Source: a virus
DNA: 64,000 bases
Virus record (IMG/VR): IMGVR_UViG_3300050821_001227
Coordinates: 19,211 to 83,210 of that record
Strand: one strand, 5' to 3'
Shown here: piece after piece, positions 31,064 to 57,713 of the stretch
How the letters are laid out: the number at the start of each line of letters is the position of its first letter
How positions within the stretch are numbered: position 1 is the first letter of the stretch
Notes under the pieces: generated by a model
The model's database searches: none
What the model was told of the DNA's origin: nothing
The model's input: the letters and a program-made list of their open reading frames with translations, nothing else
Made by a program: the position numbers and the translations under genes

Positions 31064-34000
31064 ATGCCAGCACAGATTCCAGCAAATGGCGGACAGCCAC
31101 AGAAACCTACGAAGTCGGCGTCCCTGTACACTGGACGATTTTTCCAAGGTCTTAATACAAACAGAAGCCCGCTGCGTATGGGCGGGATGACTTGGATTTA
31201 CGAGAAGTTCTACGGCGGGCAGAACGATGCTTTGATCGGCGGACTTAACACAGAAATCAGCAATCGTCTGACCCTGTGCCGTCGTCCCGGCAACCCTGTC
31301 TACACCAATCCCACGAGTGGTGTAGTCAGCGCCACGTTTGACGACGTGGATCGTTTTGAGTCGTTCCACTTGCTTGGTCCCACGACCGAGGACATTGATG
31401 TTATGATCGACACCGTTGGAACCTCTGGTGGCGATCAGCCTAGCATCTGGACAGGTCTGGATGCTACTGGCGTACGCGGAACCTTTCCGGGCGGAAGCAA
31501 AAAACAACTTGTGTTCCAGAAGTCTGTGGCGCAGCAAGCGTACATGGAATCGGTCGGCAACACTCTGTTCTTTGGTGATGGCGCTGAACAGCGTAAATGG
31601 CTGGAGACGGTCATTACGTGGGCAAGCATTCCTTCGGGCGTGCTCTCAGCCGGACAGTACCCGTACTACACGACGTACCTTGTCGATTCGAATTTTAACA
31701 TCCAACAATTGATCGGCACGATTCTAAACAACTCGGGCAGTTCCAACCACGTCACTATCGCCTCCGATGGCGTCACGGTGACGTTGAACTTTGCGTCTGC
31801 TGGCGTTGTCACGAACTCAGGGCTGGTATCTGGTACCACGGCACTGCCGCAATCTGGCAGCCCGGTTACCTTCATCGACTTTACAACCGTCACACAGTTG
31901 AACGGCCAGCTTGGGTACGTCACCAATATCGCGGGAGCCGTTGTGACCGTGGTTCTGACTACCGCAGTTGCGCCTCACTCTGTTGTGTCCGATCCCGGCA
32001 ACATGATTATCGTGAATGGCGGAACACCGACCAAAGGTAACAGCGAACCGACATGGGCAACTGTCGCGCTGGCACCCGCAGCCGTGTGGCCTTTCCCTGA
32101 TAACGTTCTCACCATCGACGGCACCGCGCTGTGGATCAATCGCAGCCTAGTCACGTCTACACAAGCCGCAGGTATTTTCAACTGGGGTATCAAGGGACCG
32201 ACAGGGCAATTGGCCAAGGTCTCGCCGAATATTGGCAGCGGAACATGGCAGCCGAACACGTACTACTCGCTCGATGGCGTACTGATCGATAGCAACGGAA
32301 ACCTTCAACAGGTCTCCACGGTTGGCACTGGCGGAGCAGTAACCCCGACTTGGCAGACGAGTGTTGGTCTGGTCACCAGCGCAACAGGCGGAACCGCAAA
32401 ATGGACGATGATCCAGACTGCGGCTTCTCTGACGTACGCAAGCGGCACCGTGTACTGTCCAGAGCACGTCGATCCTATTTCCGGGCAACCTGTGAATGGG
32501 ACCGGACAGTACATCAAGCAGAACGCTGCTGGCGTACCTTGCTTGTTTCAGCTTCAACCGAACATCCAGCCGCAAATCATTCAGCAAGCGGCAACACCGT
32601 CGAACACTAACATGAGTGCGGGCGACTATGTTGATCTGTGGTACTACGCTGGAGACGGCAATTCCGGATTATTCAAACCCGTGCCAGCCACAACTGGTGG
32701 CGCAACGGCGACCGCAAAAGTCAACAGTTTGATTTTCAATCCCGGTCCGGACCCGAACGAACAACCCATGGTTAATGCTACGCTGAACCAAGCGGGCGAA
32801 ATCACGGGTGTCACGACTCCGTGGGCAAGCGCGACCGCGAATTACAGCATGGTGGCTTTGTTCTCTGTCCTCATCACGCCAGAGTTCATGTTGGCTACTG
32901 GCGGACAATGCCAGTTGCTCATAAGCCACGATGACGGAATGGTCATCGGCTGCGCTCAGTCGAACGTGACATGGGCAGGCCCGCAGAACCTCAACGGTCA
33001 GTCAGTGTCAGCCCTGAACAGCTTCGCTCTGATTGGCGGAAACAACGTCAATGGCGATGTTGAAGATACCGGAATCATCACCTTCCCGAACGCGGGCGTG
33101 TATGATTTCGAAATCAACTACTTTCAAAACATTAACGAACAAACACTTGTCGTGCAGATGAACGGCTTCACGCCTCCTCCTGCTGTCGGTCCTTACACCG
33201 TCACATCCTGCGCTAATGCATCGGCAGGAAGCACTGTGTACGCCGGGACGTTCCCGGTTGGTGTTGCAAGTCCAGTCGGACAGACGTTCGACGTTACGGG
33301 CTTCGTCACGAATCCGGGCAACAATGGGTACTGGCCTTGCACAGCAGCGACGACCACGCACTTGACGTTGACCAACCCGAACGGTGTTGCAGAGACGGCA
33401 ACCGCTGTGGCGACGTGTAAGAGCATTCGTACGATGGCAGCAGCATCGGCACCTTCTTGGCCCTCATGGGGCGTAGGAAGTGCGCCGGGCTATCCTTCTG
33501 TCACAGAGCAAGGCAGCTATCCCGGTAATGGGCACGGTGTGTACGCCCCCACGGGCGGAACCGCGACATGGAACAACCATGGGCCTGCGGCAGACTTTGT
33601 GTTCAAAGCGAACCAGAGTTTTACGCTGGCTGACACCATCACTACGGATGTCAACCAGAATCAAGAAGCGCCCTATCGAACGGGCTACACTTCTACGGTT
33701 CAACCGACTTGGCAGAAGGCGCTCAACGCGCTGACCACCGATAACCCGAATCTGGTATGGATCAATCAAGGTCCACAGGCTTCGACCGCAAATCCGACGA
33801 CACTGACCGCAGCTTCTGGTTGGAAGTACGGAGTCGCGCTTGTCAACTCTCTTGACGACACCGTATCCAATATGTCTCAGTTCTCACCGACTACAGGGCC
33901 AGTGACGAATGCGTCATACATCAACATCCCAGCAGGGTACGGCTTGCCGCCGATTGCGCAGATCGACCCGCAAGCAGACTATGTCAACATCTACCGTACG

Positions 34001-35266
34001 ACAGATGGTGGAGCAATCCCTCTTCTGATCCCCGGCGTTGACAACAGCGGTTACACGATCCCCCTGAACGAGTACCTGAAGAACGGATTTCAAGACACAA
34101 CTCAGGACACCGGGTTGAACACTGAAATAACAGGAGCACAGGCTGGAGAGAACACCCCTCCCGCTCTCGGCGCGATAAACTTGGTCTATCACCTGAATCG
34201 TCTCTGGTACAGCATCGGAAACGTAGTTTATTATACGACCGGCCCGGCAACCCCGGATGGTAACGGGTTGAACGGAACGGCCCCACTGAACTTTGACCAG
34301 ATGCCTTCACTCGTCAAGAGAATGTTCCCGACTTCAATCGGTCTTCTCGTGTTCACCATTTCCGATGTGTACATCATTGCGGGACAAGGAACCACGACCA
34401 ACCCGATTCAGCCCGGCGAACCTTATCTGCCGGGAGTCGGACTACTGAGCTACAACGCGCTAGACAACTGTGGCACCATCATCGGCCTTCTGACAACAGA
34501 CGGAACTCAGATGATGATCGACCCCGGTGGAGGTTTCATTGACTCCGGTCAGCCCATTGGTAACAACTTTGCGCTCCGGAAGAACGACGTTCTCGGTCAG
34601 AACTGGAACCCGTCCGATGCATACGTCGCATGGTACGTGAACGGCGAAGATCAAGCATGGTATATCGCGGATGGACAGACGGGATGGTACAGACTGTGTG
34701 CCACGCCTGCTCCTGAAACGGGATATAGTTGGTCACCCTTTGCTCAGATCGCTGGCGGAACTAATGATTCGCCTTCGATACAAGCTGTGCAGAGTATTGA
34801 AGTTCAGCCCGGCATCAAGAGACTTTTGAGCGGACCCTTTGGGACTGGTCAGATTCTGCGGCGTGCATCTCTGGCAACCCCATCCTTCACAGATGGAGCG
34901 GCAGCGTATCGTGCGTATGCAGACATAGGCTCCTTGGTACTGGTTGACCCCGGCCAAGCAGCAGGCGTGAACTTCGTGACCACAGAGTGTGTGAAGGTAG
35001 GAACTCCACTCACCCTCGGCATGTTGTTCGACGAAGCCGAACCGTACACCAACGTGCCGTTCTCCATTCTACGGAACTGGGAGAATGATCCACCTAACCG
35101 TCCCAAGTCCCGCAGTCTTCTGTCACAGCGTTTCTATGTGTCAGACGACGAAGACATCGACGCAATTTGTCGGAACATTCAGTTGCGGGTAGACTGGGGC
35201 ACCGATACAGTACAGAACGAATTGCTCACTTATAGTGTGTTCGGTTCGTACTATGCTGAAAACTAG
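31064..35266 (+). CDS. Large tail protein (nozzle / stabilisation type) with inserted PA14-like and carbohydrate-binding-like modules
   Basis: 1400 aa; N.EI......RRPG N-terminus; NIYRTTDGG; SHDDG...GVYDFEINYFQ (PA14-like); WQPNT.Y repeats. Confidence 0.7.
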   Translation: MPAQIPANGGQPQKPTKSASLYTGRFFQGLNTNRSPLRMGGMTWIYEKFYGGQNDALIGGLNTEISNRLTLCRRPGNPVYTNPTSGVVSATFDDVDRFESFHLLGPTTEDIDVMIDTVGTSGGDQPSIWTGLDATGVRGTFPGGSKKQLVFQKSVAQQAYMESVGNTLFFGDGAEQRKWLETVITWASIPSGVLSAGQYPYYTTYLVDSNFNIQQLIGTILNNSGSSNHVTIASDGVTVTLNFASAGVVTNSGLVSGTTALPQSGSPVTFIDFTTVTQLNGQLGYVTNIAGAVVTVVLTTAVAPHSVVSDPGNMIIVNGGTPTKGNSEPTWATVALAPAAVWPFPDNVLTIDGTALWINRSLVTSTQAAGIFNWGIKGPTGQLAKVSPNIGSGTWQPNTYYSLDGVLIDSNGNLQQVSTVGTGGAVTPTWQTSVGLVTSATGGTAKWTMIQTAASLTYASGTVYCPEHVDPISGQPVNGTGQYIKQNAAGVPCLFQLQPNIQPQIIQQAATPSNTNMSAGDYVDLWYYAGDGNSGLFKPVPATTGGATATAKVNSLIFNPGPDPNEQPMVNATLNQAGEITGVTTPWASATANYSMVALFSVLITPEFMLATGGQCQLLISHDDGMVIGCAQSNVTWAGPQNLNGQSVSALNSFALIGGNNVNGDVEDTGIITFPNAGVYDFEINYFQNINEQTLVVQMNGFTPPPAVGPYTVTSCANASAGSTVYAGTFPVGVASPVGQTFDVTGFVTNPGNNGYWPCTAATTTHLTLTNPNGVAETATAVATCKSIRTMAAASAPSWPSWGVGSAPGYPSVTEQGSYPGNGHGVYAPTGGTATWNNHGPAADFVFKANQSFTLADTITTDVNQNQEAPYRTGYTSTVQPTWQKALNALTTDNPNLVWINQGPQASTANPTTLTAASGWKYGVALVNSLDDTVSNMSQFSPTTGPVTNASYINIPAGYGLPPIAQIDPQADYVNIYRTTDGGAIPLLIPGVDNSGYTIPLNEYLKNGFQDTTQDTGLNTEITGAQAGENTPPALGAINLVYHLNRLWYSIGNVVYYTTGPATPDGNGLNGTAPLNFDQMPSLVKRMFPTSIGLLVFTISDVYIIAGQGTTTNPIQPGEPYLPGVGLLSYNALDNCGTIIGLLTTDGTQMMIDPGGGFIDSGQPIGNNFALRKNDVLGQNWNPSDAYVAWYVNGEDQAWYIADGQTGWYRLCATPAPETGYSWSPFAQIAGGTNDSPSIQAVQSIEVQPGIKRLLSGPFGTGQILRRASLATPSFTDGAAAYRAYADIGSLVLVDPGQAAGVNFVTTECVKVGTPLTLGMLFDEAEPYTNVPFSILRNWENDPPNRPKSRSLLSQRFYVSDDEDIDAICRNIQLRVDWGTDTVQNELLTYSVFGSYYAEN

Positions 35267-38124: not shown

Positions 38125-38595
38125 ATGGCTGGAAAGATAAACACAAGTTTGATCGGGCCGCGTTTGAAGCATCGAGGCTTCTTCAGTCAGCGCGTGTACA
38201 CGGCACGCTATTTTGAGAAGCTGGGGCGGGCAAGAGTATTTACGCCCGAACAACGGGAAGCAATGCGAATCACCACCAAAGAATGGTGCCGTGTCCAGTA
38301 TCGTACGAGTGAAGAGTACCGCTTCTCGAAGCGGGTAGCCAAGTTAAAACTGGTTCATGAGTTCACCTTGGCACAGTACAAACAAATGCTTGTTGAACAA
38401 GGCAACGCTTGTTGGATTTGCCATCGTAAGTTTTCAGCGGAAATGCCTCCGTGTATCGACCACGATCACGAAGCGCGCATTGTGCGGCATTTACTATGCG
38501 ACCCGTGTAACATCGGTATCGGCACCTTTCAGGAATCTATTGAGTGGTTGCGGAGAGCGGCGTTATATCTTGAGACGCATCGGAAAGGAATATAA
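38125..38595 (+). CDS. Endonuclease VII-type homing endonuclease
   Basis: QGNACWIC...IDHDHE..IVRHLLCDPCNIGIG.FQE. Confidence 0.88.
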   Translation: MAGKINTSLIGPRLKHRGFFSQRVYTARYFEKLGRARVFTPEQREAMRITTKEWCRVQYRTSEEYRFSKRVAKLKLVHEFTLAQYKQMLVEQGNACWICHRKFSAEMPPCIDHDHEARIVRHLLCDPCNIGIGTFQESIEWLRRAALYLETHRKGI

Positions 38596-43596: not shown

Positions 43597-46500
43597 ATGG
43601 ACGCTCCCGAGACGATTCAACCGGAACAAACACAGGCACCAGCGATCATCGACCCGCAAATGGACACGAATAAAGTCTATGAGCAGGAGCATGAACGCCA
43701 GCATGCAATCTCTGACGATCAGCCGACACAGTTGGCACAGAACGATGTGCCGACGTACACGCTAGGGAGTCCAGCAGGACTTCTTGAGCCCGGCAACATT
43801 GACTTGAATAACCGCCCGCTTGTTCACAATGCTGACGGTTCGCACAGTACCGAGTATTCAACATCGTTTGGAGATGAGAAGGGTCGAGAGGTTCTTGTTC
43901 CCACCGTGGTCAACGGTAAGTTCTTGACGCCGGATGGCAGGAAGCCTGCCGAACGAAGTCCAGCCGAGAAAGCTATGTTCAGGCGTGCACAAGCGCACTA
44001 TGAACAGACGCATGAGCATATGGGCATTTTTGATTCCCCAGAGAACTCTGACGCGTACGCCAACATCGTACACAATCGGCAAGATGCTCGTGTGCCTACG
44101 AGCGATACGCATAACATTGTTCAGGCTCCAGATGGGGCAAAGGTGGCGTTCCCCAAGGGCACGTCCCCTGAGACGATGCACGCAGAGATGACGAAGTGGT
44201 GGCAGCCTCGTGTTCAGCAAGCAATGCAAGCATGGGACGCAGTACGCAACGCGGCATCGAACGCAGCGCAGGCAATCGGCCTCCCCAGCGACATGCCTGA
44301 GTTGCAACTACAGACCGACGAGTTCATGCGTGATCCAGTCGGAAAGACTGGAGACGTTGTAGGCGCAGTCGTAGGCGGGCTTGCACACGGATTCAATGCT
44401 ATCATTCCGAATACTACCGAGAACCGAGCTATGGTTCAGCGCGCCCAAGCAGAGCACGCGCAGGGAAACAACATTGCCGCAGCTACCACGCTTGTGCCGT
44501 TAGTCGGAGACGGTCTGGCCAAGGCCGTGAAGCAGGCGCAGGACAAAGATTTCTCAGGATCAATCGGAACCACTCTTGGTGTCGCTGCACCATTCCTTAC
44601 CGAAACATTCAAGGCCGAACCGGAACTTCCGGTCAGTCGTGAGCAGGCATACGCTGGCGCAGAACGACGCGCAGCCGCAGCCTCCGAAGCCCCTGCTTAT
44701 GCAGGTGCAGAACGCCGTGGCGCTTTGATGAGCCCGACTGAGATTGAGAACAACCTCAAGACTGGACGACCAGTCTATACGCCGTTCGACAGTACCGAAG
44801 GCGCAATGGATACGATTAACCGCGATCTGGCAACGCGCTTGGAGAAGCAGCCAGAACCTGTAGCAGTTAATGCTTCGGGCGAATCCGCCGCTTCGCAGGA
44901 AGCGATCAATCGTACGGCCAGTCAGAAGGTACAAGGCATCAAGACGTTCCGTGTGGATAGCCGCACGGGCAACGCAACGCCTGTTCTGGGTGTTGACGCC
45001 GCAGACGCTACAGCGCATCCGTATGAGCACGTCGTTCAAGTCAAAGACGGGCAAGTCACGGTGCAAGATTCAGGCAAAGGAGCACGCCCGCTCGACGAGC
45101 AGAAGTTGCTCAAACAGACAGGTGGCGAACTTCCCAAGCAGATCGTAGGTACCGCAGAGGGCGCAGTCCGAGATTCAGAACTGTTCGCGCAGGCGAAACA
45201 GAAGCTGGGTCCAGACGCATCCTTCTCGCAGATTGCGACCGAAGCACAGCGCATGAAGACTGCGGGCGAAGACGTTCCGATTCAGGTTCGTCATTGGTCG
45301 AAACAGCGCGTTCCTCTAACCGAAACCAATCCTGAGATGTTCGGCACAGGCCGAGCGGGTGCGGAACGGTCACGGGCGAATGAGCCCGGATTCTTGCCGC
45401 GTACTTATTTCGGCATGGACGGTTACCGCGAACCCGAAGTCCAGTCCGGCCTCGAACACACGGCCACGCTGGACCGCAGCAAGTATTACGACATCAATGC
45501 AGACAAGGACGGCATCTGGCAGAAGGGCTTCCAAGAAGGTGGCGCAACCGCCGCAGAGAAAGCTGTGAAGGATGCGGGATACTCAGGGTACTATTCTCCT
45601 GAGCAGCAAGTCGCCGCATCGTTCGACAAGGTTCCGGTCAAGGTCCGTAAGGGTCCAGTCGCCGAAGCCGCAGACAGCTTCAACGCAGAACATGGCCGTC
45701 CTCCGGTCGAACATAAAATAGTCAGTGCTCCGGAACACGCGAAAGCGATTGCCGACGAGTATGAGCACATGGCTCACGATCCTAACAATCCTGCCGTTCA
45801 ACGCGCCTACGGCGCAATGAAAAACGACATCGACGAGCAATGGGATTACGCAACCAAGAAGATGGGCATCACTATGGAGCCATGGACTGGAGAAGGCCAG
45901 CCCTATAAGAACTCCAAGGAGATGACCGCAGATGTAAAGAACAACAAACATCTGTATTTCTTTACAGGTGGTGACATGCCTGTCGATCATCCGTTAGCAG
46001 AGGATGCTGGCGAAGGATTGAATTACAATGACAAGTTGCGGGCAGTTCATGATTTGTTCGGTCATGCAGCCAACGACAACCAGTTCGGCCCCCAAGGCGA
46101 AGAACGTGCATGGCAAGAACATCGTCAAATGTTCAGCCCTGAAGCAATCCCCGCCGTCACTACAGAAACTCGTGGACAGAATAGTTGGGTAAACTTTGGA
46201 CCGCACCTGAGAGACGCCGAAGGCAACATCCCCGGCAAAGGTGAGCCCGGAGCAATCCCGCCCGCCAAGCGTCCGTTCGCCGAACAAAAAGCTGGCTTAC
46301 TGCCGGAATGGGCAACCCGCCCCGAAGGCGTGCCAACCGATGCTGCGACTGCGCAGAAAACTTTAGAACACATCAAGTCGGGGAAGCCATTCGCTATCTT
46401 GACGGCAGAGAACCCGCTCAATACCCGCATCGGAGACGCCGAGAACGCGGCACGGAATGCTGCGCTCGAAGACGATCTTAAAGCCCGTGGGTACGAGCCT

Positions 46501-48066
46501 ACGCACGTAATCGGCAACAACCGAGATGTGGCAGGCGAGAAAGAGCACTCTTTGTTTGTACCCGGCATCTCTCCCGAAGAGGCTGCGGAACTTGGCCGTA
46601 AGCACGGCCAGCAAGCCGTTCTGACGAACGAGGGTCTACATGACCTTCAGTCGAACACGATTATGCCGTCTGACAACACGAACGTGATGTTGGATGACGC
46701 AGCCCGTAAGCAGCCGTACTACTCGACTGTAGGCGGGCAGGATTTCAGCGTTCCTTTGGGTGAGTCTGAGCCTAAGCAGTTCAGCAATCTCAAAGAAGCC
46801 GCAAAAAATTTGTGGACGGACGAGACGGGCACGTATACGTCTGGTCAGTTCATGAAGTACCTTGCCAAGAATAAACTTATGAGCAAGGCTGGGCAAGACA
46901 CACTGGAAACCGCCTCGAAAGAGAAGGTAGTTCCGGGTTGGGCCGAAGTCTCGAAGTTTCTGACCCCCGAAGATCGGGCACAAGCTAGTGCCTCAGTTCA
47001 GCGTAACGTTGTTGATCTGGTGAACAAGTTCAATCCCAAATGGGTTGAGGACGCCGCGAAAGCGGGCTCCGCAGCTAAGGGATGGTACTCGCGGGCAACC
47101 GCTCTAATCGATCACATGTTCGGTGATGAGGCACACCGCTTCACGAATTTCGTGGCGTCATTGTCTCCGCAGAAGGACGTTGAACAGAATCTTACAGATG
47201 CACTCAATTTCTACAACCTCTGGCAAGAAGCGGGAAAGCCGCTTGGCCCGGAGAACGAGAAGGTCATTCGCGACCTTACTGAGCGTGCCGAAGTTGGCAT
47301 GTCTGGTCAGGTGGCCCGCAATCAGTTGTACGAAAATCTCGTCAACGACGTGCAGCCTACAGGTCCGAAAGTTTCCAACTTCGCCCGCAACCTCAAAGGC
47401 AATATGGATGCCGTCACCAAAGATCGGTGGATGGCGTACCTGTTCGGCAACAACGACCGTATGTTCCGCTGGTTCAAGGAGGGCTCACCAAAGCCCGCCG
47501 TACACATGGCGGCAGATGCGCTTGTTCGCGCAGTCGGCCAGAACATCGGAATGCTTCCCGCAGAGGTACAAGAAACCGCTTGGAGTTTCTTGCGAACTGT
47601 GGTAAACTTAACCGAGAAACAAGGTATCAGTACGAAAGCAGCCGTTGGCAGCATCAACGACGCGCTGATACGGGAAGGTGCCAGTGATCTTACAAGACTC
47701 ATCGCAGACAGCCCCAAAGTCCAGTCTGCCCTCAACCGACTCGCAACAGCAACCGGAGACGAGCGCTTTAGAGCAGTCAATCTCCAAAACTCTCCAAAGT
47801 TTAAGCAACTCCTCGCAGAGCACCAAACCCAAGCGCCTACCGCAGGCGGTATTGGAGCCACTAATCGTGCGGGTCTTGAACGGGGTGTCAACAAAGCTAT
47901 CGAAGCCCGGTCCTCGTTAAGCAAAGAGAAGACCGCCAAGGCCAAGAAGGCAGCCGCTAAATCCCAAGCGCCGAAGGTAGATAAGGACACCGAGTTCAAC
48001 CCCGATGACCTTAGCAACAACTTCACCCCTTCACTCAGCAACAAGATGAGGGAAGCGCTTTCATAG
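43597..48066 (+). CDS. Large multidomain (polyvalent-type) internal virion protein
   Basis: 1489 aa; GNIDLNNRP domain, ART-like H...G.G...YF, AVHDLFGH...ETRGQNSW, DUF3293-like FAILTAENP, HhH-like WY...LSPQ...GPKV..F...D.WM. Confidence 0.7.
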   Translation: MDAPETIQPEQTQAPAIIDPQMDTNKVYEQEHERQHAISDDQPTQLAQNDVPTYTLGSPAGLLEPGNIDLNNRPLVHNADGSHSTEYSTSFGDEKGREVLVPTVVNGKFLTPDGRKPAERSPAEKAMFRRAQAHYEQTHEHMGIFDSPENSDAYANIVHNRQDARVPTSDTHNIVQAPDGAKVAFPKGTSPETMHAEMTKWWQPRVQQAMQAWDAVRNAASNAAQAIGLPSDMPELQLQTDEFMRDPVGKTGDVVGAVVGGLAHGFNAIIPNTTENRAMVQRAQAEHAQGNNIAAATTLVPLVGDGLAKAVKQAQDKDFSGSIGTTLGVAAPFLTETFKAEPELPVSREQAYAGAERRAAAASEAPAYAGAERRGALMSPTEIENNLKTGRPVYTPFDSTEGAMDTINRDLATRLEKQPEPVAVNASGESAASQEAINRTASQKVQGIKTFRVDSRTGNATPVLGVDAADATAHPYEHVVQVKDGQVTVQDSGKGARPLDEQKLLKQTGGELPKQIVGTAEGAVRDSELFAQAKQKLGPDASFSQIATEAQRMKTAGEDVPIQVRHWSKQRVPLTETNPEMFGTGRAGAERSRANEPGFLPRTYFGMDGYREPEVQSGLEHTATLDRSKYYDINADKDGIWQKGFQEGGATAAEKAVKDAGYSGYYSPEQQVAASFDKVPVKVRKGPVAEAADSFNAEHGRPPVEHKIVSAPEHAKAIADEYEHMAHDPNNPAVQRAYGAMKNDIDEQWDYATKKMGITMEPWTGEGQPYKNSKEMTADVKNNKHLYFFTGGDMPVDHPLAEDAGEGLNYNDKLRAVHDLFGHAANDNQFGPQGEERAWQEHRQMFSPEAIPAVTTETRGQNSWVNFGPHLRDAEGNIPGKGEPGAIPPAKRPFAEQKAGLLPEWATRPEGVPTDAATAQKTLEHIKSGKPFAILTAENPLNTRIGDAENAARNAALEDDLKARGYEPTHVIGNNRDVAGEKEHSLFVPGISPEEAAELGRKHGQQAVLTNEGLHDLQSNTIMPSDNTNVMLDDAARKQPYYSTVGGQDFSVPLGESEPKQFSNLKEAAKNLWTDETGTYTSGQFMKYLAKNKLMSKAGQDTLETASKEKVVPGWAEVSKFLTPEDRAQASASVQRNVVDLVNKFNPKWVEDAAKAGSAAKGWYSRATALIDHMFGDEAHRFTNFVASLSPQKDVEQNLTDALNFYNLWQEAGKPLGPENEKVIRDLTERAEVGMSGQVARNQLYENLVNDVQPTGPKVSNFARNLKGNMDAVTKDRWMAYLFGNNDRMFRWFKEGSPKPAVHMAADALVRAVGQNIGMLPAEVQETAWSFLRTVVNLTEKQGISTKAAVGSINDALIREGASDLTRLIADSPKVQSALNRLATATGDERFRAVNLQNSPKFKQLLAEHQTQAPTAGGIGATNRAGLERGVNKAIEARSSLSKEKTAKAKKAAAKSQAPKVDKDTEFNPDDLSNNFTPSLSNKMREALS

Positions 48067-49081: not shown

Positions 49082-50743
49082 ATGGCAAAGTCGAAGGTAA
49101 CCAAGGCGCAACTGATTGCCGACATTAAGGCAGTTGCTGGCAAGAAACCCGCTATTACTCGTGCCGAGTACATCCTCGGTGGACAGTTCAAGAAGGCGTA
49201 CGAGACGTACTTCGAGACGTTCGATCAATTCCGTGCAGCCGCGAAGCTAGTCGCGCCGAAGGATTTGGTGGACGGCAAAGAGCGAGTCGCTGAACGTAAG
49301 GAGCCGTTACCGGAAGCAGGCAAGGTCAGTCGCTACATCCTGACTTCTGCACAGAACAACACCAAGGTGCACAAAGAGTTTTGGGCAAACCTCAAAGCCT
49401 TCGCAGATCACTACAGCGCGAAGATTATGATCGGGACGTTCTCATACAACCAGAACCAGTACGGTAAGCTGTCCGTCAAGCGCGGTAAAGAGAATCCGAC
49501 AGGCAATCAGTTGTGGTTCGACGCAGACATCGAGCAGTACCTGAACGACGAGCGCGTTGAACTGGCACCCGGCCTTGTTTGGTGCGGTGATCAGAACATC
49601 ATGCCGACCGAAGAGAACCCGTTGTCCGGCCTCGAATCGTTCGCCCACGGCAAGAGCGCGATCTTCCCACATACCAAGATCGAGATGCGTTCAATCGCAG
49701 TTCCCGAAGGTATGCCAGTGAAGATGAACTTCACCACAGGCGCAGTCACTCAACTGAACTACATTCAGAAGAAAGCTGGTCTGAAGGCAGAGCATCATCA
49801 CCGCTATTCATTTTTGATTGTCGAAGTGGACGACAAAGGAAACTGGTTCGTGCGCCAAGTATCGGCCCGCAAGAATGGCTGCAACATTCAAGACCTGAAC
49901 ATCGAAGTCGAAGACGGCGTTGTCGTATCGACGGACGCCAAGGTCGAAGCAATCACATGGGGAGATTTGCACGCAACCAACTCCCAGCCGGAAGTTGTCG
50001 ATGCATCACAAGAGATGCTCGACGAGTTGCACCCGAAGTACCAGTTTATTCACGACGTGATGGAAGGTGTCAGCATCAACCGACACTACATCAAAGCCGC
50101 TCCGTTGCCACATCTGTATTTCCATCGTTGGTTGCGTGGTCTGCATCGCGTCGAAGACGAGTTGAAGCGTACCCGCGCCATCGCAGAACGTTATCTGCGC
50201 CCGTGGTGTACGACCGTCGCGCCGGACGCCAACCATGACGCATGGTGGCTCCAGTCATGGCTCAATCGTTACGACTACCGTTTCGATCCAGCCAACGCAG
50301 AAATCTTCCTGCGCCTGCAACTGTTCATGTACGAACAGATCAGAGCGGGCAAGCTGCCCAAGAACGTTAACATCATGCAGCGTGTGATGGAGACGGAAGC
50401 GGGCATGAAGCCCGGTAGCATGAAGTTCCTCCTACCCGATGAGTCATTTGTGGTAGGGGAAATCGAGTGTGGTCAGCACGGCCACCTCGGACCGAATGGT
50501 AACTTCGGCAACCCTGCCAATCTCTCGAAGATCGGCAAGAAGATGACTACCGCACACACGCACTCAGCGGGCATCTATCACGGCCTGTTCGTAGCAGGCA
50601 CTTCTTCAAAACTGACGGCGGGTTGGGATTACACAACCGGACCATCAAGCTGGGGCTGGAGTCACGTCGTCCAGTACGACAACGGCCAGCGCGCCATAGT
50701 CACCATGAAGATGGTTGACGGCAAGGCACGCTGGAGAGCGTAG
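49082..50743 (+). CDS. Calcineurin-like metallophosphoesterase
   Basis: GDLH, IHDV, ANHD, HGH and AHTH motifs in the expected order. Confidence 0.8.
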   Translation: MAKSKVTKAQLIADIKAVAGKKPAITRAEYILGGQFKKAYETYFETFDQFRAAAKLVAPKDLVDGKERVAERKEPLPEAGKVSRYILTSAQNNTKVHKEFWANLKAFADHYSAKIMIGTFSYNQNQYGKLSVKRGKENPTGNQLWFDADIEQYLNDERVELAPGLVWCGDQNIMPTEENPLSGLESFAHGKSAIFPHTKIEMRSIAVPEGMPVKMNFTTGAVTQLNYIQKKAGLKAEHHHRYSFLIVEVDDKGNWFVRQVSARKNGCNIQDLNIEVEDGVVVSTDAKVEAITWGDLHATNSQPEVVDASQEMLDELHPKYQFIHDVMEGVSINRHYIKAAPLPHLYFHRWLRGLHRVEDELKRTRAIAERYLRPWCTTVAPDANHDAWWLQSWLNRYDYRFDPANAEIFLRLQLFMYEQIRAGKLPKNVNIMQRVMETEAGMKPGSMKFLLPDESFVVGEIECGQHGHLGPNGNFGNPANLSKIGKKMTTAHTHSAGIYHGLFVAGTSSKLTAGWDYTTGPSSWGWSHVVQYDNGQRAIVTMKMVDGKARWRA

Positions 50744-50747
50744 AATT

Positions 50748-51221
50748 ATGAACTGGCTTGAGCGTTTCTGGAATCGCGTTGAGTTTGACGGCCCGATTCC
50801 AGAAGCCTGTCCCGAACTAGGAAATTGCTGGCTTTGGGCAGGCGCGAAGTCGAGAGACTACGGTCACGTTCGTAGCGGTTCAAAAATGTTGGCGGTGCAT
50901 AGAACCGCCTTCGAAATTCAGAACCATGTTGCGGTTCCAGAAGACTTGGATGTTTGTCATCGTTGCGATAACCCATCCTGTGTTAGAGGTACGCACCTGT
51001 TTGCAGGTAACGGATTTCAAAACCTGCAAGATGCCGTGCGAAAAGGTAGAGCAAGGTTTCACAAAGTAACTCCAGCGCAAGCACGGGAGATTCGTCAGAG
51101 ATACAAGAACGGAGAAAGTCAAACGGCACTCGCGGTAGAGTTTGGTGTTTGTCAATCAAACATATCAAAGATAGTGCATAACGTCACATACAAAGAGGAG
51201 GTATTGTGCGCGTCTATATAG
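50748..51221 (+). CDS. HNH homing endonuclease with C-terminal HTH
   Basis: CWLW.G...YG...HR...VCHRCDNPSCV...HLFAG...N..D; LAVEFGVCQSNISKI. Confidence 0.92.
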   Translation: MNWLERFWNRVEFDGPIPEACPELGNCWLWAGAKSRDYGHVRSGSKMLAVHRTAFEIQNHVAVPEDLDVCHRCDNPSCVRGTHLFAGNGFQNLQDAVRKGRARFHKVTPAQAREIRQRYKNGESQTALAVEFGVCQSNISKIVHNVTYKEEVLCASI

Positions 51222-51737: not shown

Positions 51738-52328
51738 ATGTCGAGTAACAACGTATCAATCGCGCCCACATCGAAGGCGCTTGGAAGTAATCCCAAGGAT
51801 TTGCTGGGGGCAAAGAAACCTGACGCCTCAAAGATTCCCGCCGTAGCAATTGCATGGGAGTCTCTGGCGATGATGGACGGTGCAGGGAAATACAACGCTT
51901 ACAACTGGCGTGCGAACAAGGTCATCGCGTCGATCTACGTCGCGGCCTGCAAGCGCCATCTCGATATGTGGTTTGAAGGACAACGCAAGGCGGAAGATTC
52001 GGGATGTCATCATCTCGGACACGCACGCGCGTGCCTAGGCATACTGCTCGACGCCGAAGCCACGGGCAACTTGATTGACGACCGTCCGGTATCCGAAGGC
52101 TCATTGGAAGCCTACAGGGCTGTGATGGCAGAGATTGAGTCATTGATCCCTTTGATGTACGAGCGGCACAAGAAGTTCAAAGCCGAACAGGCTGCGAAGA
52201 AGGCCGCACAGCAAGGCGCTGTCGATGAAGTTCGGTGCGAACGTGGCCTTTCGGCTTACGCTTGGGCGGTCAACAGCGTCGATAAGCAGCTTCCATCCAT
52301 GCCGTCAGGCAACGGATTAAGCGATTGA
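51738..52328 (+). CDS. dATP/dGTP diphosphohydrolase (DUF5664)
   Basis: NPKD..G.KK...GA.KY..YNWR...RHL..W..G...DSG.HHLGHA.ACL.IL.DA...G.L.DDRP. Confidence 0.88.
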   Translation: MSSNNVSIAPTSKALGSNPKDLLGAKKPDASKIPAVAIAWESLAMMDGAGKYNAYNWRANKVIASIYVAACKRHLDMWFEGQRKAEDSGCHHLGHARACLGILLDAEATGNLIDDRPVSEGSLEAYRAVMAEIESLIPLMYERHKKFKAEQAAKKAAQQGAVDEVRCERGLSAYAWAVNSVDKQLPSMPSGNGLSD

Positions 52329-52391: not shown

Positions 52392-52505
52392 ATGAATCCT
52401 ATTTACATTTTTCTTGCCGCTCTTGTGGGCGGCATCGTTGGAGGCTGGGTAACGAGCTACTTTCAACGTACCCGCGATCCCCGTCCTTACGATGTTGAGA
52501 AGTAG
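52392..52505 (+). CDS. Small membrane peptide (37 aa)
   Basis: MNPIYIFLAALVGGIVGGW...; GGAGAG RBS; the last 10 nt overlap tRNA-Asn. Confidence 0.45.
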   Translation: MNPIYIFLAALVGGIVGGWVTSYFQRTRDPRPYDVEK

Positions 52506-52571
52506 CCAAGCTGGTAAGGCAGCGCACTGTTAATGCGCCTACCGTAGGTTCGAATCCTACCTTCTCAGCCA
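52496..52571 (+). tRNA. tRNA-Asn(GTT)
   Basis: Acceptor TGAGAAG/CTTCTCA, anticodon arm GCGCA-CTGTTAA-TGCGC, GTTCGAATC, encoded CCA. Confidence 0.95.
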
Positions 52572-52581
52572 TATCAAATGT

Positions 52582-52655
52582 GGGTCGTTCGTCTAGTGGG
52601 AGGACACCTGCCTTGCACGCAGGGAACAGGGGTTCGAATCCCTTACGATCCACCA
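52582..52655 (+). tRNA. tRNA-Ala(TGC)
   Basis: Acceptor GGGTCGT/ACGATCC with G3.U70, anticodon arm CCTGC-CTTGCAC-GCAGG, GTTCGAATC, ACCA. Confidence 0.95.
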
Positions 52656-53145: not shown

Positions 53146-53336
53146 TGTATCAAGAAACGATCAAAGGCAAACCGGAGCGAGTCGGAAAGATTCCCGTCCC
53201 GCCGATCAAAGAGACGCAGGAACTGATGTCCTCGGCCAACCGAGCAATCGAGGACTACACTGCGAGGCCGACACAGGTCCGTCACCCCCTTGGTCACGGC
53301 ATACCTAAAACCAGCGAATTGTTGGGAGGAGAGTGA
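53145..53336 (+). CDS. Hypothetical protein
   Basis: TAATG overlap start. Confidence 0.55.
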   Translation: MYQETIKGKPERVGKIPVPPIKETQELMSSANRAIEDYTARPTQVRHPLGHGIPKTSELLGGE

Positions 53337-53338
53337 CA

Positions 53339-54097
53339 ATGAGTACCCCAAACATACTGACCCCGCCCACAGGACAAATCTGGACTGTGGCTAAAAACGA
53401 TTTAACATGGCTTCAAAAACACGAACGAGTGGCAATCGTTGCCCTTGTGCTGCTTGTTGGAGGTTTCTTGGGAAACAAGGCGTTGAATTATGACGCATCC
53501 CTTAAAGACGCCAAAGTGGCCGCACTGACGCAAGTCGTAGCTCAAGATAAGCAGAATACCGCCGCACTTGCGCTGGCGTCGGCTACAGCGCAGCAACAGT
53601 ATCAGATGACGCTAGACGCCGTTACCAAGCAAAATGTCGCGCTGGAGGCTTCCGTAGCGCAAATGGCGGCTAATTTGGGAAAGCAGCAAGCCGTGGATAA
53701 ACAAATGCCTTTGCCTCAATTGGGACAGCGGCTCCAAGCCCTAGTCCCTGCCGCGACGGGCGTAACGGCTACATCAACAGGATTGACTTTAGATTCAGTG
53801 AGTTCCGTGGCTGTCGTGCAGTCGCTCGAACAAGTCCCCGTCCTAAAGGACGAACTGACGAACGAGACGCAAGTTGCTGCAAACAATGCTGCTTTGCTAT
53901 CGGACGCGGACAAAGTTATCGACGCGGACGGTAAAGAGATCACAGGGCTCAACAAGGAACTGACCGATCAGCAGGCCGACACGAAGGCAATTATCGCGGC
54001 GGACAAGGTCAAGATCAAGAAGGCATGGCGCAGCGGATTCAAGTGGGGCTTCGGCCTCGGGTTCGCCACTGGCGCTTACGTGATGCACGCGTTATAA
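53339..54097 (+). CDS. Membrane-anchored coiled-coil protein (spanin-like)
   Basis: N-terminal hydrophobic segment, long coiled coil and C-terminal hydrophobic segment. Confidence 0.55.
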   Translation: MSTPNILTPPTGQIWTVAKNDLTWLQKHERVAIVALVLLVGGFLGNKALNYDASLKDAKVAALTQVVAQDKQNTAALALASATAQQQYQMTLDAVTKQNVALEASVAQMAANLGKQQAVDKQMPLPQLGQRLQALVPAATGVTATSTGLTLDSVSSVAVVQSLEQVPVLKDELTNETQVAANNAALLSDADKVIDADGKEITGLNKELTDQQADTKAIIAADKVKIKKAWRSGFKWGFGLGFATGAYVMHAL

Positions 54098-54647: not shown

Positions 54648-54682
54648 GAACGGGTGAGCATTACCGCTCACCCCGTTTCTTT
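54648..54682 (+). terminator. Intrinsic terminator
   Basis: GGGTGAGC/GCTCACCC stem followed by GTTTCTTT. Confidence 0.55.
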
Positions 54683-54948
54683 AGGGTGGTCAGTTTGGCA
54701 ACTGCCAAACGTTTTAGAACTGCCTTCCGCTGAGTGCGCGTGTTTAACTGCGGATAAACACCCCGAGAGAAAACGGGCTATTGGGCGAGATGCGCTCGTA
54801 CCAGCACAGAGACAAAACAAAAACGCAGAGCAGCATAGCAACAGGCCAACAATAGGCTGGCAGCTAGTACCTACGTTATTCTTTTGCCCGTAAGGCCGGA
54901 CCCGCCATAGAGGCGGACTGGTTGGAGGAGAGAAAGAGTAGCTTAACA

Positions 54949-56346
54949 ATGAGTAATGAAATTGTTTTACAGTGGAACCCGAGCTCAACTCCGGTTTCAG
55001 GTTACAACGTTTATCGTGGCAGTTTGCCCGGTAACGAAGGCGCGGCTCCCATTAACGCGAGTCTCGTCACAGTGTTCCCAACTTTGAACTTGTCGTCCGT
55101 TGCAGCGTCGGTTGGCGGTTCAGCAGTTTATTCCGGGTCGTTGCCCGGTGGAGCCGGAAATGCGTACGCGGGGTTTAGCTTCCTCGTCGCAGGATTCGGC
55201 GGCAGCAACAACAACGGAATGTTTGCTTGCACGGCTTCAACCACCTCAAGCATGACGCTGTCGAACGCAAATGCTACTGCGGAAACTCACGTCGCGCTTG
55301 CGAACCAGATTCCGCAATACACCGACACGGCTGTGTTCCCCGGCAAGTCGTACTCCTATGAAATTACCGCTGTCAGCGGTGGTGTAGAGAGTGCCGACTC
55401 TGTTGGAATCGAATCGGCTCCGGTGCCGTATGGACCGACCCCGGTCATCCCAGTTGTTAATGGGTTTGACAACTTCATGGTGCTGGCAGGTTCTACCATC
55501 ACCAGCACAGGTGAAACTCAAGTGTCTGGCGATATCGGCACTTATCCCGGTACGTCCATCACGGGGTTCCCTCCCGGCGTTATCAGCGGCGTGTTCCATT
55601 ATGCCGACTTTGTTTCTGCCGCAGGCGAGGCCGCAGCGCAACAGTTGTACAATGCGTTGATGTTGATGACCAGCACGGCGACCATTTCTGGCGACTTGGG
55701 CGGACAGACGCTCACGCCCGGCGTGTACACGTCTTCGTCCACCATCGGAATCACGGGCATCCTCACGTTGGATGCGCAAGGTGACCCGAACGCGGCATGG
55801 GTTTTCCAAATCGGAAGTGCCCTGACCACTGCGGCTTCGAACAGCGCAATTGTCCTGCTCAACGGTGCGCAAGCATCGAACGTGTATTGGCAGGTCGGCA
55901 GTTCCGCAACTCTTGGCGTTGGTACGTCCTTCGCCGGTACGATTGTGGCACAGACCAGCATTACCGCTAACACTGGCGCGAACATCGCGGGTCGCTTGTT
56001 TGCGATCACAGGGGCTGTTACTATGGACGACAATAGCGTCGTTCTGTTCCTCCAGTTCCCGTTCACAGGTGCTTGGCAAGCCAACCATGCTTATGCTTTG
56101 GGGCAGTTGATTTTTGACTGTCAGAGCAATAGCTACCAAGAAGTCCTTGTTGCTGGAATCAGTGGGGCTACCAAGCCCACGTTCTCTGGCACTCCAAATG
56201 ACCTAACCACGGACAATACCGTTACGTGGGCAGCAGTTTCTCCTGCAAGTTCATTCGTATTGATTGACTTGCCGCCATCACCGCCCAACATGGCTCCTGC
56301 GCCACCCGCAGCACCGACCGGGCTGATTATCAGTTTTGAAGACTAA
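54949..56346 (+). CDS. Ice-binding protein (DUF3494) fused to a split FN3-like domain and tail-type modules
   Basis: F.VLAGSTIT.TG.T...GDIG..PGTSITGFPPG...DLGG.TL.PGVY...LTLDAQGDPNA.WVFQIGS.LTTA...L.NGAQASNVYWQVGSSATLG...F.GTI.A..SIT..TGA...GRL.A..GAVT.D.N. Confidence 0.93.
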   Translation: MSNEIVLQWNPSSTPVSGYNVYRGSLPGNEGAAPINASLVTVFPTLNLSSVAASVGGSAVYSGSLPGGAGNAYAGFSFLVAGFGGSNNNGMFACTASTTSSMTLSNANATAETHVALANQIPQYTDTAVFPGKSYSYEITAVSGGVESADSVGIESAPVPYGPTPVIPVVNGFDNFMVLAGSTITSTGETQVSGDIGTYPGTSITGFPPGVISGVFHYADFVSAAGEAAAQQLYNALMLMTSTATISGDLGGQTLTPGVYTSSSTIGITGILTLDAQGDPNAAWVFQIGSALTTAASNSAIVLLNGAQASNVYWQVGSSATLGVGTSFAGTIVAQTSITANTGANIAGRLFAITGAVTMDDNSVVLFLQFPFTGAWQANHAYALGQLIFDCQSNSYQEVLVAGISGATKPTFSGTPNDLTTDNTVTWAAVSPASSFVLIDLPPSPPNMAPAPPAAPTGLIISFED

Positions 56347-56359: not shown

Positions 56360-56551
56360 ATGTCGGTTCTTAACGGAAAAGGCTCAGGCTCAAACCCTCT
56401 TGCAGCCACGGCAGACTGGAATCTCGCGATCCAGCCTGCTGGGGTTGTTTTAGTCTCAGACGGGTATGGCAACGTAGCAGGCTCGGGAGTATTACTCTCG
56501 ACCCTCGAAACGCAAAGTTTCGCAACCGACACTGATTGCGGAACTTTCTAG
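56360..56551 (+). CDS. Small virion-type protein ending DCGTF
   Basis: GGAAGG RBS; C-terminal motif shared with the next gene. Confidence 0.6.
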   Translation: MSVLNGKGSGSNPLAATADWNLAIQPAGVVLVSDGYGNVAGSGVLLSTLETQSFATDTDCGTF

Positions 56552-56562: not shown

Positions 56563-57078
56563 ATGTTAAATGTAAAAATTCAGACCTATCGTGGAACGTT
56601 GTCTGATTTGTCTACGCTGGCGACTACGGGATTCCCCGGAGTGCTTGCATGGACAACGGACAGCAACCAACTATTTGTTGACCTTGGCAGCGGTGCTGCG
56701 GGCTACGGCCCCGGCAAAGCATGGCAGCCAGTCAACGCGGCTCATAACGTGTTCACCGTATCTTCGACGGCAGGGCTAACAGCCTTGGCGGCGAACGTCG
56801 GCGATTTGGCAATTGACACTGGCAACGGAGTCACGTACATATTGACTTCGTTTCCCGCATCGTCGTTGCCGAACTGGACGGCTATTACCACGCCCGATGT
56901 TACACCTCTCGGAGCCCCTGTGGCTCATGAATGGGTGACGTACATCGACGCGTCTGGCGTTCAACACCTTTCTCAACCCGCCTTCACCGACATTTCTGGA
57001 CTGCTTGCGCAAACGCAACTGCCCGCAACCATCGGCGCAGGTAGCAGTCTCACGAACATCGACTGCGGAACATTCTAA
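56563..57078 (+). CDS. Tail-fibre-associated protein ending IDCGTF
   Basis: KIQ.YRG...G.LAWTTD..QLFV N-terminal module; A.VGDLAI...YIL...W. Confidence 0.65.
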   Translation: MLNVKIQTYRGTLSDLSTLATTGFPGVLAWTTDSNQLFVDLGSGAAGYGPGKAWQPVNAAHNVFTVSSTAGLTALAANVGDLAIDTGNGVTYILTSFPASSLPNWTAITTPDVTPLGAPVAHEWVTYIDASGVQHLSQPAFTDISGLLAQTQLPATIGAGSSLTNIDCGTF

Positions 57079-57085
57079 GGTTACC

Positions 57086-57478
57086 ATGGCACGTAACGTA
57101 GGCTTTCAAATTCTACGCGGCGTGAAGGCTAACGCTCCCGTGCTTGAAGCGGGGGAAAGTTACCTTGCGACGGACACCAACGAAATAGTTATCGGCACAA
57201 CCGGGGGCAACTTTGTCCTCGGTCGTCCGGTATTTAACGCAGCAGGCGTGCGTCAAATGACCGCGCATATTGTGGCAGACCGCGTCACGCTTAGTGGCGG
57301 GGCTGCAACCGTAACGTTAGTCGGAAGCGCGGCCTTTACGAACGCGACCAGTTACTCCACCGTCTTGTGTGATAGCACGGCCAATCATTCGGCCAAAATC
57401 ACACAAAACAGTGGGAGCAGCTTTACGATTGCAGGCACAGGCAGCGATGTAATTGAGTTCATATGCATCGGAACTTAA
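57086..57478 (+). CDS. Tail-fibre-associated protein
   Basis: FQILRG..AN.P.L.AGE.YLATDT.E..IG module. Confidence 0.65.
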   Translation: MARNVGFQILRGVKANAPVLEAGESYLATDTNEIVIGTTGGNFVLGRPVFNAAGVRQMTAHIVADRVTLSGGAATVTLVGSAAFTNATSYSTVLCDSTANHSAKITQNSGSSFTIAGTGSDVIEFICIGT

Positions 57479-57684: not shown

Positions 57685-57713
57685 AGCCCATCTTAATTGA
57701 TGGGCTTCTTTTT
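57685..57713 (+). terminator. Intrinsic terminator at the strand convergence
   Basis: AGCCCATC/GATGGGCT stem followed by TCTTTTT. Confidence 0.7.

Follow-up and report, generated by a model that had tools for sequence, protein, structure and literature searches.

A candidate virion appendage protein with a DUF3494 domain of the ice-binding family in a podovirus-like soil phage

Why does a soil phage encode a domain of the "ice-binding" family DUF3494, and where and on what does this domain act? We addressed this question in a stretch of 64,000 nucleotides (hereafter the window, numbered from its first letter), which corresponds to positions 19,211 to 83,210 of the IMG/VR record IMGVR_UViG_3300050821_001227, i.e., to the final 64 kb of this 83,210-bp record (CheckV completeness estimate, 86%). 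A profile search recovered a single match to PF11999, the Pfam family of DUF3494, in the whole record; it falls in a gene for a protein of 465 amino acids (aa). The frame of this gene is open from a TTG codon at 54922, and we took the ATG at 54949 as its start; the 34 aligned relatives begin at the equivalent of this ATG. The preliminary description, made from the letters of the window, had presented the product as a phage-encoded ice-binding protein built like a virion appendage. By comparison with other phages, we found that it is a conserved, phage-resident protein that is probably displayed on the particle, with ice binding as a putative function. The protein is organized as follows:

54949..56346, + strand: gene of the 465-aa FN3/DUF3494 modular protein, stop codon included
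54949..55071, + strand: first part of the FN3 domain (residues 1-41), beginning at strand B, with the N-terminal A strand absent
55072..55314, + strand: module 1 (residues 42-122), a small beta-barrel that interrupts the FN3 domain, with a copy in a 1400-aa protein
55315..55434, + strand: second part of the FN3 domain (residues 123-162)
55444..56055, + strand: residues 166-369, a cap-less beta-solenoid of the DUF3494/IBP-1 type and the helix that flanks it (Pfam core at 178-364; helix at 221-238)
56065..56256, + strand: module 2 (residues 373-436), about 60 aa with W/Y/G/P-spaced motifs
56257..56343, + strand: Pro-rich linker and conserved terminal strand (residues 437-465), resembling an FN3 A strand

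The hidden Markov model search confirmed that the DUF3494 domain is complete, as had been read from the letters: PF11999 matched residues 178-364 (E = 1.8e-58; 198.1 bits for a cut-off of 28.7) and the match covers positions 1-207 of the 208 positions of the profile. When the PDB sequences were searched with phmmer (E <= 0.01), 25 chains were retrieved, the best being EfcIBP (6eio; E = 4.3e-50), and all 25 are deposited as ice-binding, antifreeze or DUF3494 proteins or, for 6bg8, as "Ig domain protein, group 2". We further built an AlphaFold2 model of the protein from a 35-row family alignment (mean pLDDT 85.3). Foldseek matched this model to 6eio (44% identity) and to AnpIBP (7bwy; 42% identity; root-mean-square deviation, rmsd, 0.9 Å), and a wide fold search retrieved AnpIBP (7bwx; Z 33.3; rmsd 1.1 Å; 201 of 203 residues; 42% identity) and 5uyt (Z 32.1). 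In the model, the segment is predicted to form a right-handed beta-solenoid, against which a single long helix packs. The name DUF3494 is carried only by Hyperionvirus entries among the 50 BFVD matches listed (E = 2.9e-16 to 5.2e-9), and generic beta-helix tail proteins appear as weak matches.

The segments that surround the domain had been described as FN3-like, and this likeness was found at the level of the fold but not by Pfam. The fn3 family (PF00041) remained below its cut-off of 25 with the whole protein (16.7 bits) and with residues 1-175 (19.3 bits), and the sub-threshold match was restricted to residues 2-23 (profile positions 13-36). Residues 1..162 of the model, in contrast, align around the insert at residues 42-122, which splits the domain, to solved FN3 structures (5g56, Z 9.6, 78 residues aligned, 35% identity; 3mpc, Z 9.0; further ones mostly Z 7-8.5), and the best matches are Fn3 modules of bacterial glycoside hydrolases (33-35% identity). 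The solved chains align only from approximately their residue 18, which suggests that the N-terminal FN3 domain lacks its A strand, and the alignments end by model residue 164. Outside the DUF3494 domain, the C-terminal tail is the best-conserved part of the protein (N447, P450, P453 and P456 are invariant in 35 sequences), and its profile matched only the 465-aa protein in the window. The C-terminal PP..PTGL strand, which had been assigned to the FN3 fold, is present and conserved, but it is not paired with the FN3 domain in the monomer model: no strands were predicted past residue 439 and the tail is not docked.

Modules 1 and 2 connect the protein to a second protein of the phage, in which the following features were located:

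31064..35266, + strand: conserved 1400-aa protein of the structural block, homologous to gp19 of phage Tunturi_3; in other phages, its homologues bear inserts of DUF3494 or PA14
33191..33415, + strand: copy of module 1 (residues 710-784; profile E = 2.3e-16)
32243..32416, + strand: copy of module 2 (residues 394-451; profile E = 2.3e-5)
33599..33763, + strand: weaker second copy of module 2 (residues 846-900; E = 0.013 by BLASTP and 0.012 by profile)

Both modules had been proposed to be in common with the 1400-aa protein, and both were recovered by BLASTP (module 1: residues 48-118 versus 713-783, 43% identity, E = 1e-5; module 2: residues 373-436 versus 392-456, 32% identity, E = 2e-4) as well as by profiles built from the family and run over the 662 stop-to-stop open reading frames (ORFs) of the window. 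The module 1 profile matched only the 465-aa gene and the 1400-aa protein; the module 2 profile also gave a weak match to a 443-aa ORF (23010-24341; E = 7.5e-5). The 1400-aa protein has no PHROGs match, and the 23 members of its alignment (A2) all lack a Pfam match; the A2 profile gave a single match to the PDB sequences (E = 0.2), and an AlphaFold2 model of residues 880-1400 built from the 23 rows was too poor for a fold search (pLDDT 44.7). The ESM Atlas returned viral clusters only, with CBM_5_12, Phage_stabilise, crAss_MUZ and E1_FCCH as low-confidence leads at 0.88-0.92. Two of its relatives carry PF11999 (72-74% identity), and PA14 (PF07691) was seen in the relatives P0145, P0172, P0178 and P0214. 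It seems that surface modules can be exchanged on the 1400-aa protein, which would serve as their platform.

Searching the 50,697 cultured-phage records, we found that the 1400-aa protein matches only gp19 of Tunturiibacter phage Tunturi_3 (PP885686.1; 42.9% identity over 86%), which sits among genes annotated as tail fibres, and that none of these records matches the 465-aa protein. The large terminase subunits (TerL) of the two phages are 46.6% identical over 98% of the length, and the order of the structural genes is similar. According to PMC11924767, Tunturi_3 is a podovirus of Tunturiibacter psychrotolerans (Acidobacteriota) isolated from Arctic tundra meadow soil, with relatives in permafrost peat. 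An acidobacterial host would also fit the phage of the window, since a metagenome-assembled genome (MAG) of Terriglobia contains a module 2-like segment that is 55% identical.

The two modules were further characterized across the family. Module 1, which is about 75 aa long, moves within the family like a cassette and varies among P0009, P0012, P0013 and P0015/16/18: it is missing in the members of 387 aa, doubled in P0009, and inserted a second time within the DUF3494 domain in P0012 and within module 2 in P0013. Its closest folds are the E1 FCCH domain (Z 8.2), the phage FCWL1 head-to-tail protein (Z 7.7) and the phi92 endosialidase (Z 7.2), values in the range where the likeness may be merely a common arrangement. 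Pfam found no family for module 1 alone or for module 2 with the tail, and the assignment of module 2 to CBM5/12 was consequently unsupported. Module 2-like segments are also present in proteins of 712 and 1107 aa on Acidobacteriota/Terriglobia MAG contigs (L093 and L094), where they match phrog_20658, "head decoration" (E = 1e-6 and 5e-4); these proteins may come from prophages or from the cell surface of bacteria in the likely host group.

We then considered the distribution of the domain in viruses. A survey of IMG/VR with the family alignment gave 153 pattern matches and 100 confirmed relatives, the best 80 of which (79 loci) were examined; a full PF11999 domain was present in all 53 non-duplicate ORFs scanned outside the target family. 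After masking the domain, single-linkage clustering grouped 17 loci with sheath proteins, 16 with the target and six with the 1400-aa protein. Five of the loci (L030, L039, L044, L049 and L084) match the PHROG tail sheath with E-values of 5.5e-30 to 1.3e-38 (L084 also matches Pfam Phage_sheath_1C, and L055 gave a weak match), and in these fusions DUF3494 lies in-frame and N-terminal to the conserved sheath core. The six proteins of the 1400-aa type (1354-1476 aa) are collinear with the 1400-aa protein (39% identity at the N-terminus and 31-33% in the C-terminal half), and they carry a DUF3494 insert near the C-terminus in addition to modules 1 and 2. Four loci (L063, L070, L072 and L074) encode giant phage proteins of 916-2288 aa with one to three copies of DUF3494 and a common N-terminus, for which no PHROG match was found.

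The neighbors of the gene were compared at 14 target-like loci. At L010, the gene lies between a major head protein (-1) and a collagen-like fibre (+1); a fibre directly follows at L014 and L007 (+1), and position -3 is occupied by a tail protein of 1407 aa at L012 and by a fibre at L020. L008 carries the same two downstream genes as the window, whereas L016 follows the terminase and the neighbors of L009, L017, L018, L019 and L021 are uninformative. In agreement with the preliminary description, we saw no signal peptide in the 465-aa protein: read directly from the sequence, without a predictor, the N-terminus presents neither a basic n-region nor a hydrophobic run and is already an FN3 strand. 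With a crude heuristic, a signal-peptide-like start was found in only three of the 79 viral DUF3494 ORFs.

In the window itself, the gene is followed by small genes of the fibre type:

54652..54673, both strands scored: GC-rich, terminator-like hairpin from a consensus scan, following an upstream 59-aa ORF; likely 5' limit of the unit
56360..56551, + strand: 63-aa ORF without family match
56563..57078, + strand: 171-aa fibre-like protein, 85% identical in the syntenic L008
57086..57478, + strand: 130-aa tail-fibre-type protein, with Mtd_N below threshold
57685..57706, + strand: terminator-like hairpin from a consensus scan, where the unit meets a minus-strand block; likely 3' limit of the unit

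Three tail-fibre-type genes had been described here, and this description is supported for two of them. The 130-aa ORF matches phrog_32740, tail fiber (E = 3.5e-14 with the longer reading 57005-57478, 157 aa), and the tail fibre or spike genes of Burkholderia phages (E = 2e-13). The 171-aa ORF matches phrog_5207, a family of unknown function, and minor tail proteins of Arthrobacter phages (E = 8e-5), but the 63-aa ORF remains without a family. A short motif is common to the C-termini of the 63-aa and 171-aa ORFs (pairwise E = 0.006); it may be an attachment or processing element of small fibre proteins. The leader between the 5' hairpin and the 465-aa gene is about 275 nt long, and no sigma-70-like promoter was found on its + strand. 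The terminator-like scan gave eight sites for 6.8 expected in shuffled sequences, i.e., about the number expected by chance. The 465-aa gene and the fibre-like genes appear to form one unit.

Taken together, the fusions of the domain to sheath and 1400-aa-type proteins, the structural neighbors of the orthologues and the local fibre-gene unit lead us to infer that the protein is displayed on the virion. These comparisons of sequence lend good support to the view that it is phage-encoded and built like a virion appendage, and we consider that the 465-aa protein is probably borne by the particle. The target-like, 1400-aa-type and sheath-type groups together comprise at least 39 of the 79 loci that we examined in IMG/VR. 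The protein could be placed among the non-secreted, non-enzymatic surface proteins of phage particles, where it would act as a decoration protein or a fibre accessory.

What the domain would bind was examined on its flat face. The site strands of AnpIBP, as given in PMC7277481, were transferred via a HMMER alignment, which predicted B-face strands at residues 182-187, 202-205, 264-269, 290-295, 318-323, 336-341 and 355-360. One of them, SSATLG (residues 318-323), is letter-identical to the strand that contains S153 and T156 of AnpIBP, and a substitution by Tyr at either of these positions leaves 17% of the activity according to the same source. By manual count, 22 of 24 outward-facing B-face positions are T, S, A or G, and the fourth position is Thr in five of six B-face strands. 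Conservation is high across viruses: T185 is found in 65, T321 in 68 and T358 in 66 of 69 unique viral DUF3494 domains, and T185, S264, S318 and T358 are invariant in the 35 family members. The chance that the 465-aa protein would show a measurable affinity for ice in vitro seems slightly better than even.

These features can be assembled into a proposed mechanism. The split FN3 domain and the Pro-rich C-terminal strand would be the constant frame of the family, probably anchoring the protein to the virion or to its neighbors, and the barrel of module 1, the cap-less DUF3494 solenoid and the approximately 60 aa of module 2 would project from this frame. The solenoid would present a flat B-face rich in Thr, Ser, Ala and Gly, as used by AnpIBP and EfcIBP to order water and adsorb to ice. 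The particle could thereby adsorb to ice and locally inhibit recrystallization in seasonally frozen soil, and the benefit might be that capsid and tail are spared freeze-thaw damage or that the particle is kept in the unfrozen films where hosts persist. The habitat of the nearest isolate offers a hint in this direction, as Tunturi_3 comes from Arctic tundra soil and the name of its host species is psychrotolerans. Ice binding as the selected function is tentatively our best explanation as a whole, with a chance of being correct that we place somewhat below even. We rank it first, and the binding of the virion to something other than ice comes second. A broader version is doubtful: a guild of uncultured soil phages, comprising podoviruses of Acidobacteriota and unrelated contractile-tailed phages, would carry functional ice-binding domains on capsid or tail, derived from phage-resident and swappable DUF3494 cassettes, and the 465-aa protein would be the free-standing form, with a permuted FN3 clasp whose C-terminal strand completes the FN3 domain of a neighbor and chains the copies onto the particle.

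Several observations weigh against a virion-borne ice-binding protein. The 465-aa gene is located about 4 kb past the main structural block, the protein has no PHROG family at E = 1e-3 and hence belongs to no known structural family, and the only role label available for the 1400-aa protein is the annotation of gp19 as "head decoration protein". The Tunturi_3 genome contains no DUF3494 by PF11999 search, which sets this phage apart from that of the window, and its relatives are also found in temperate (US) and tropical soils (PMC11924767). Among the genomes with the nearest matches to the domain are mesophilic soil genera (Streptomyces, 57%; Amycolatopsis, 51%). As described in PMC7783341, the hydrophilic array is conserved across the whole family, members of the family are found at tropical sites and in hot springs, and other periodic substrates are proposed by Raymond. 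Finally, the C-terminal half of the 1400-aa protein has 417 relatives, and among the 120 listed, four carry PA14 and two PF11999; this ratio suggests that a pool of adhesion modules fits better than a cold-specific pool.

These last points fit the second-ranked explanation, which we consider possible but unlikely taken by itself: the protein would be displayed on the virion, and modules 1 and 2 would join the DUF3494 face in forming a reversible adhesin for a repeating hydrophilic surface such as host exopolysaccharide, envelope glycans or mineral and organic surfaces of the soil. Like the Ig-like, FN3 or carbohydrate-binding decorations of other phages, it would increase host encounter or retention. 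All the evidence for a virion context applies equally to this explanation, and PA14 is a domain of the carbohydrate-binding type. The resemblance of module 1 to the barrels of the phage head-to-tail protein and of the phi92 endosialidase (Z 7.2-7.7) also points to adhesion, but these values lie in the range of common arrangements mentioned above. The Fn3 modules of glycoside hydrolases as best FN3 matches and the worldwide occurrence of DUF3494, warm sites included (PMC7783341), are likewise consistent with a ligand other than ice. In addition, the likely host group has PF11999 proteins of its own: the family is above its cut-off in nine of the 81 sampled genomes from the class of the Terriglobia MAG and in none of the 14 controls. 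In contrast, every solved relative is deposited as an ice-binding or antifreeze protein and both residues critical in AnpIBP are identical here. To our knowledge, and without an aimed search, there is no DUF3494 protein with a demonstrated ligand other than ice, which we also count against the adhesin.

Alternatively, the protein might be a non-structural cryoprotectant of the auxiliary metabolic gene type, made in the infected cell and acting inside it, or released at lysis, so as to protect the host or the progeny. In PMC11515562 (Rahlff et al. 2024), three genes of Arctic viral operational taxonomic units annotated as PF11999 are interpreted as host cryoprotection; this study and its preprint are the only reports of virus-encoded genes of this kind that our literature searches on viral PF11999 or phage ice binding returned. 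Those genes and ours are alike in being virus-encoded and ice-binding-like, but the former are read there without reference to architecture or virion context, whereas our evidence points to a protein displayed on the particle. A cryoprotectant would fit the position of the gene outside the main structural block, near nucleotide-metabolism and tRNA genes, the absence of a PHROG structural family, and the identical fragments in a soil RNA library, where DNA can also be present. However, microbial ice-binding proteins work outside the cell (PMC7277481) and the protein has no signal peptide, its FN3 domain comes with modules found in a protein of the structural block, DUF3494 is known from in-frame fusions with tail sheaths, and the orthologues adjoin capsid and fibre genes. 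Moreover, the cultured Synechococcus phage S-SKS1, which PMC11515562 names as having homologues, gave no PF11999 match at E = 0.01; this run contained no positive itself, and the same search was positive on other genomes.

The origin of the domain argues in the same direction. We inferred a quick maximum-likelihood tree of 98 domains (69 unique viral sequences and 29 proteins of named bacteria or metagenomes; two rows, both P0109, derive from an Eisenbacteria MAG) after merging identical rows and excluding partial domains that span <= 150 profile positions. The target falls in a clade of 18 rows with a support of 99 (Shimodaira-Hasegawa-like approximate likelihood ratio test, SH-aLRT), composed of 16 family members, P0045 and P0080, the latter from a 17-kb contig labelled as a Saccharimonadales MAG. 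The sheath and 1400-aa-type cassettes are in other clades, and the sequences of Cryobacterium, Arthrobacter and Streptomyces group apart from the target clade. This family clade, separate from named bacteria, suggests that the domain has long been resident in the phage family and was not recently captured from a host. Across 185,579 species genomes, no full-length relative of the 465-aa protein was found, only matches at the level of the domain. Sequence comparison thus gives no indication of the recent host origin expected of a host-derived auxiliary gene, and we regard the cryoprotectant as improbable.

Slightly less probable still is the possibility that the protein belongs to the virion but its DUF3494 solenoid serves only as a rigid spacer or scaffold without a ligand, any binding being left to modules 1 and 2 or to the downstream fibres. 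Beta-solenoids are common rigid elements of phage fibres, beta-helix tail proteins are among the weak BFVD matches, and it is modules 1 and 2 that move from one protein to another. However, the outward Thr and Ser residues of one face are among the most conserved of the protein, which a mere spacer would not need, and in the sheath proteins the domain is an add-on and not a spacer.

The weakest explanation, a host DUF3494 gene mis-joined to phage DNA during assembly, deserves hardly any weight: the contig is derived from a metagenome and the one run that spans the whole stretch may be its source, but orthologues at 72-73% identity with the same downstream genes in independent IMG/VR contigs exclude the chimeric host insertion that had been named as a possible objection. 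The full 465-aa architecture is retained in orthologues of 92-44% identity from independent assemblies, and the 34 full-length relatives that were aligned come from metagenome clusters of jgi, ena, Logan and ncbi. The GC-content is flat at 0.53-0.54 across the region of the gene, and near-identical pieces were found in soil runs of two further studies; like the absence of a full-length relative from the species genomes, these results contradict a mis-joined host gene. We conclude that the 465-aa gene is almost certainly a real phage gene.

All the runs that contain this DNA are labelled "soil metagenome". In the independent runs, no contig bridges the borders of the 465-aa gene by >= 31 letters, the nearest piece (54806-54956) reaching eight letters into it. 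One of the runs with near-identical pieces comes from an RNA library, in which seven contigs are identical and two of these lie within the 465-aa gene; as DNA can occur in RNA libraries, we read this as no more than a hint of expression. The conserved core motif of the domain (55853-55917) is matched over only 40-65 nt by many unrelated contigs of three soil runs, which then diverge; this suggests that many different DUF3494 genes coexist in those soils. Gaps in the coverage by runs X3 and X4, which consist of short contigs, carry no meaning. Runs X5-X7 contained 5% of the sampled words, and the pieces from X5 cover mostly this same interval. We rejected the pieces from X5-X7 as evidence of the phage or its habitat and attributed them to DUF3494 genes of other organisms.

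The remainder of the window is that of a podovirus-like soil phage. On its left side, the minus strand encodes a DNA polymerase and a primase-helicase. A long block on the + strand then contains the large terminase, the portal, a weak match to a major head protein, large proteins of 1400, 745, 675 and 1489 aa and a "DNA transfer protein". Past this structural block come an HNH gene, a gene of the dATP/dGTP diphosphohydrolase type, tRNA-Asn, tRNA-Ala and a few small genes, and then the 465-aa gene. The 1489-aa protein (43597-48066, + strand) matches DUF3293 (E = 2.9e-15) and DUF7178 (E = 2.9e-12), and it is preceded by the 745-aa and 675-aa proteins and followed by the "DNA transfer protein" (phrog_1745). 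Judged from gene order, the 745-, 675- and 1489-aa proteins look like internal or ejected virion proteins of podoviruses. Genes for HNH endonucleases and endonuclease VII are unusually many across the structural block (9084-9674, 17753-18475, 19440-19910, 20527-21042, 38125-38595 and 50715-51221).

Between this block and the 465-aa gene, a 196-aa protein (51738-52328, + strand) carries the N-terminal domain of dATP/dGTP diphosphohydrolases (PF18909; E = 8e-22) and matches phrog_2252 and phrog_801; enzymes of this type are associated with phages that substitute a DNA base. The tRNA genes (Asn-GTT at 52496-52571 and Ala-TGC at 52582-52655, + strand) lie between this nucleotide-metabolism gene and the 465-aa gene, and Tunturi_3 likewise has a tRNA-Asn (PMC11924767). 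A 254-aa protein without family match (53333-54097, + strand) is hydrophobic in an N-terminal segment and again at the C-terminus, with a long Ala/Gln-rich stretch in between; it may act in lysis or be a membrane protein.

We finally compared the protein with known systems. EfcIBP (6EIO) and AnpIBP (7BWX/7BWY) are single-domain, cap-less proteins of the IBP-1 type, with which the 465-aa protein has the Pfam family, the fold and the B-face pattern in common, SSATLG included. These are small secreted proteins of an Antarctic bacterium and a fungus, whereas the 465-aa protein is phage-encoded, lacks a signal peptide and has its domain embedded between an FN3 domain with a barrel and module 2 with a Pro-rich tail. 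SfIBP_1 of Shewanella frigidimarina (6BG8; E = 2.4e-30; 33% identity) also combines DUF3494 with Ig-like beta-sandwich modules, of which the full protein has several repeats, but it is a cell-associated or secreted bacterial protein with another type of beta-sandwich, another domain order and no phage context.

Among viral proteins, the sheath cassettes (L030, L039, L044, L049 and L084) and those of the 1400-aa type (L059-L083) present the same domain with a conserved B-face, and the hosts of the latter have modules 1 and 2 in common with the 465-aa protein. Both kinds of cassettes differ from it in being in-frame inserts of a large core protein and in belonging to separate domain clades, while the 465-aa protein is free-standing with its own FN3 frame. 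The DUF3494 proteins of Hyperionvirus, found in giant-virus metagenome bins, are viral as well, but they belong to a eukaryotic giant virus and not to a phage, and their architectures are different. Conceptually, the 465-aa protein recalls the Ig/FN3 decorations of the Hoc type in phage T4, which are non-essential beta-sandwich proteins of the surface with an attachment element and weak adhesion; Hoc has no DUF3494 and no sequence relation to the 465-aa protein. In PMC11924767, the paper describing Tunturi_3, ice binding is mentioned zero times.

Genes with PF11999 in viromes are currently read as auxiliary genes that protect the host, and at least 39 of the 79 loci examined here are instead part of, or associated with, virion proteins. 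Soil viruses face repeated freezing and their means of survival are barely known, such that working ice-binding domains on their particles would provide a concrete and testable mechanism, both for this survival and for the location of particles in frozen soil. If capsids or tails of soil phages do carry functional ice-binding domains, an ice-binding function would be assigned to a virus particle for the first time, which would offer a mechanism for the persistence of viruses, and their encounter with hosts, in frozen soil. This would also place a protein family that is studied with cryopreservation and food applications in mind in a new context, that of virus particles. Should the slime of the host or mineral surfaces be the ligand, the 465-aa protein would reveal a second, adhesive role of the "ice-binding" family, which has so far only been suspected.

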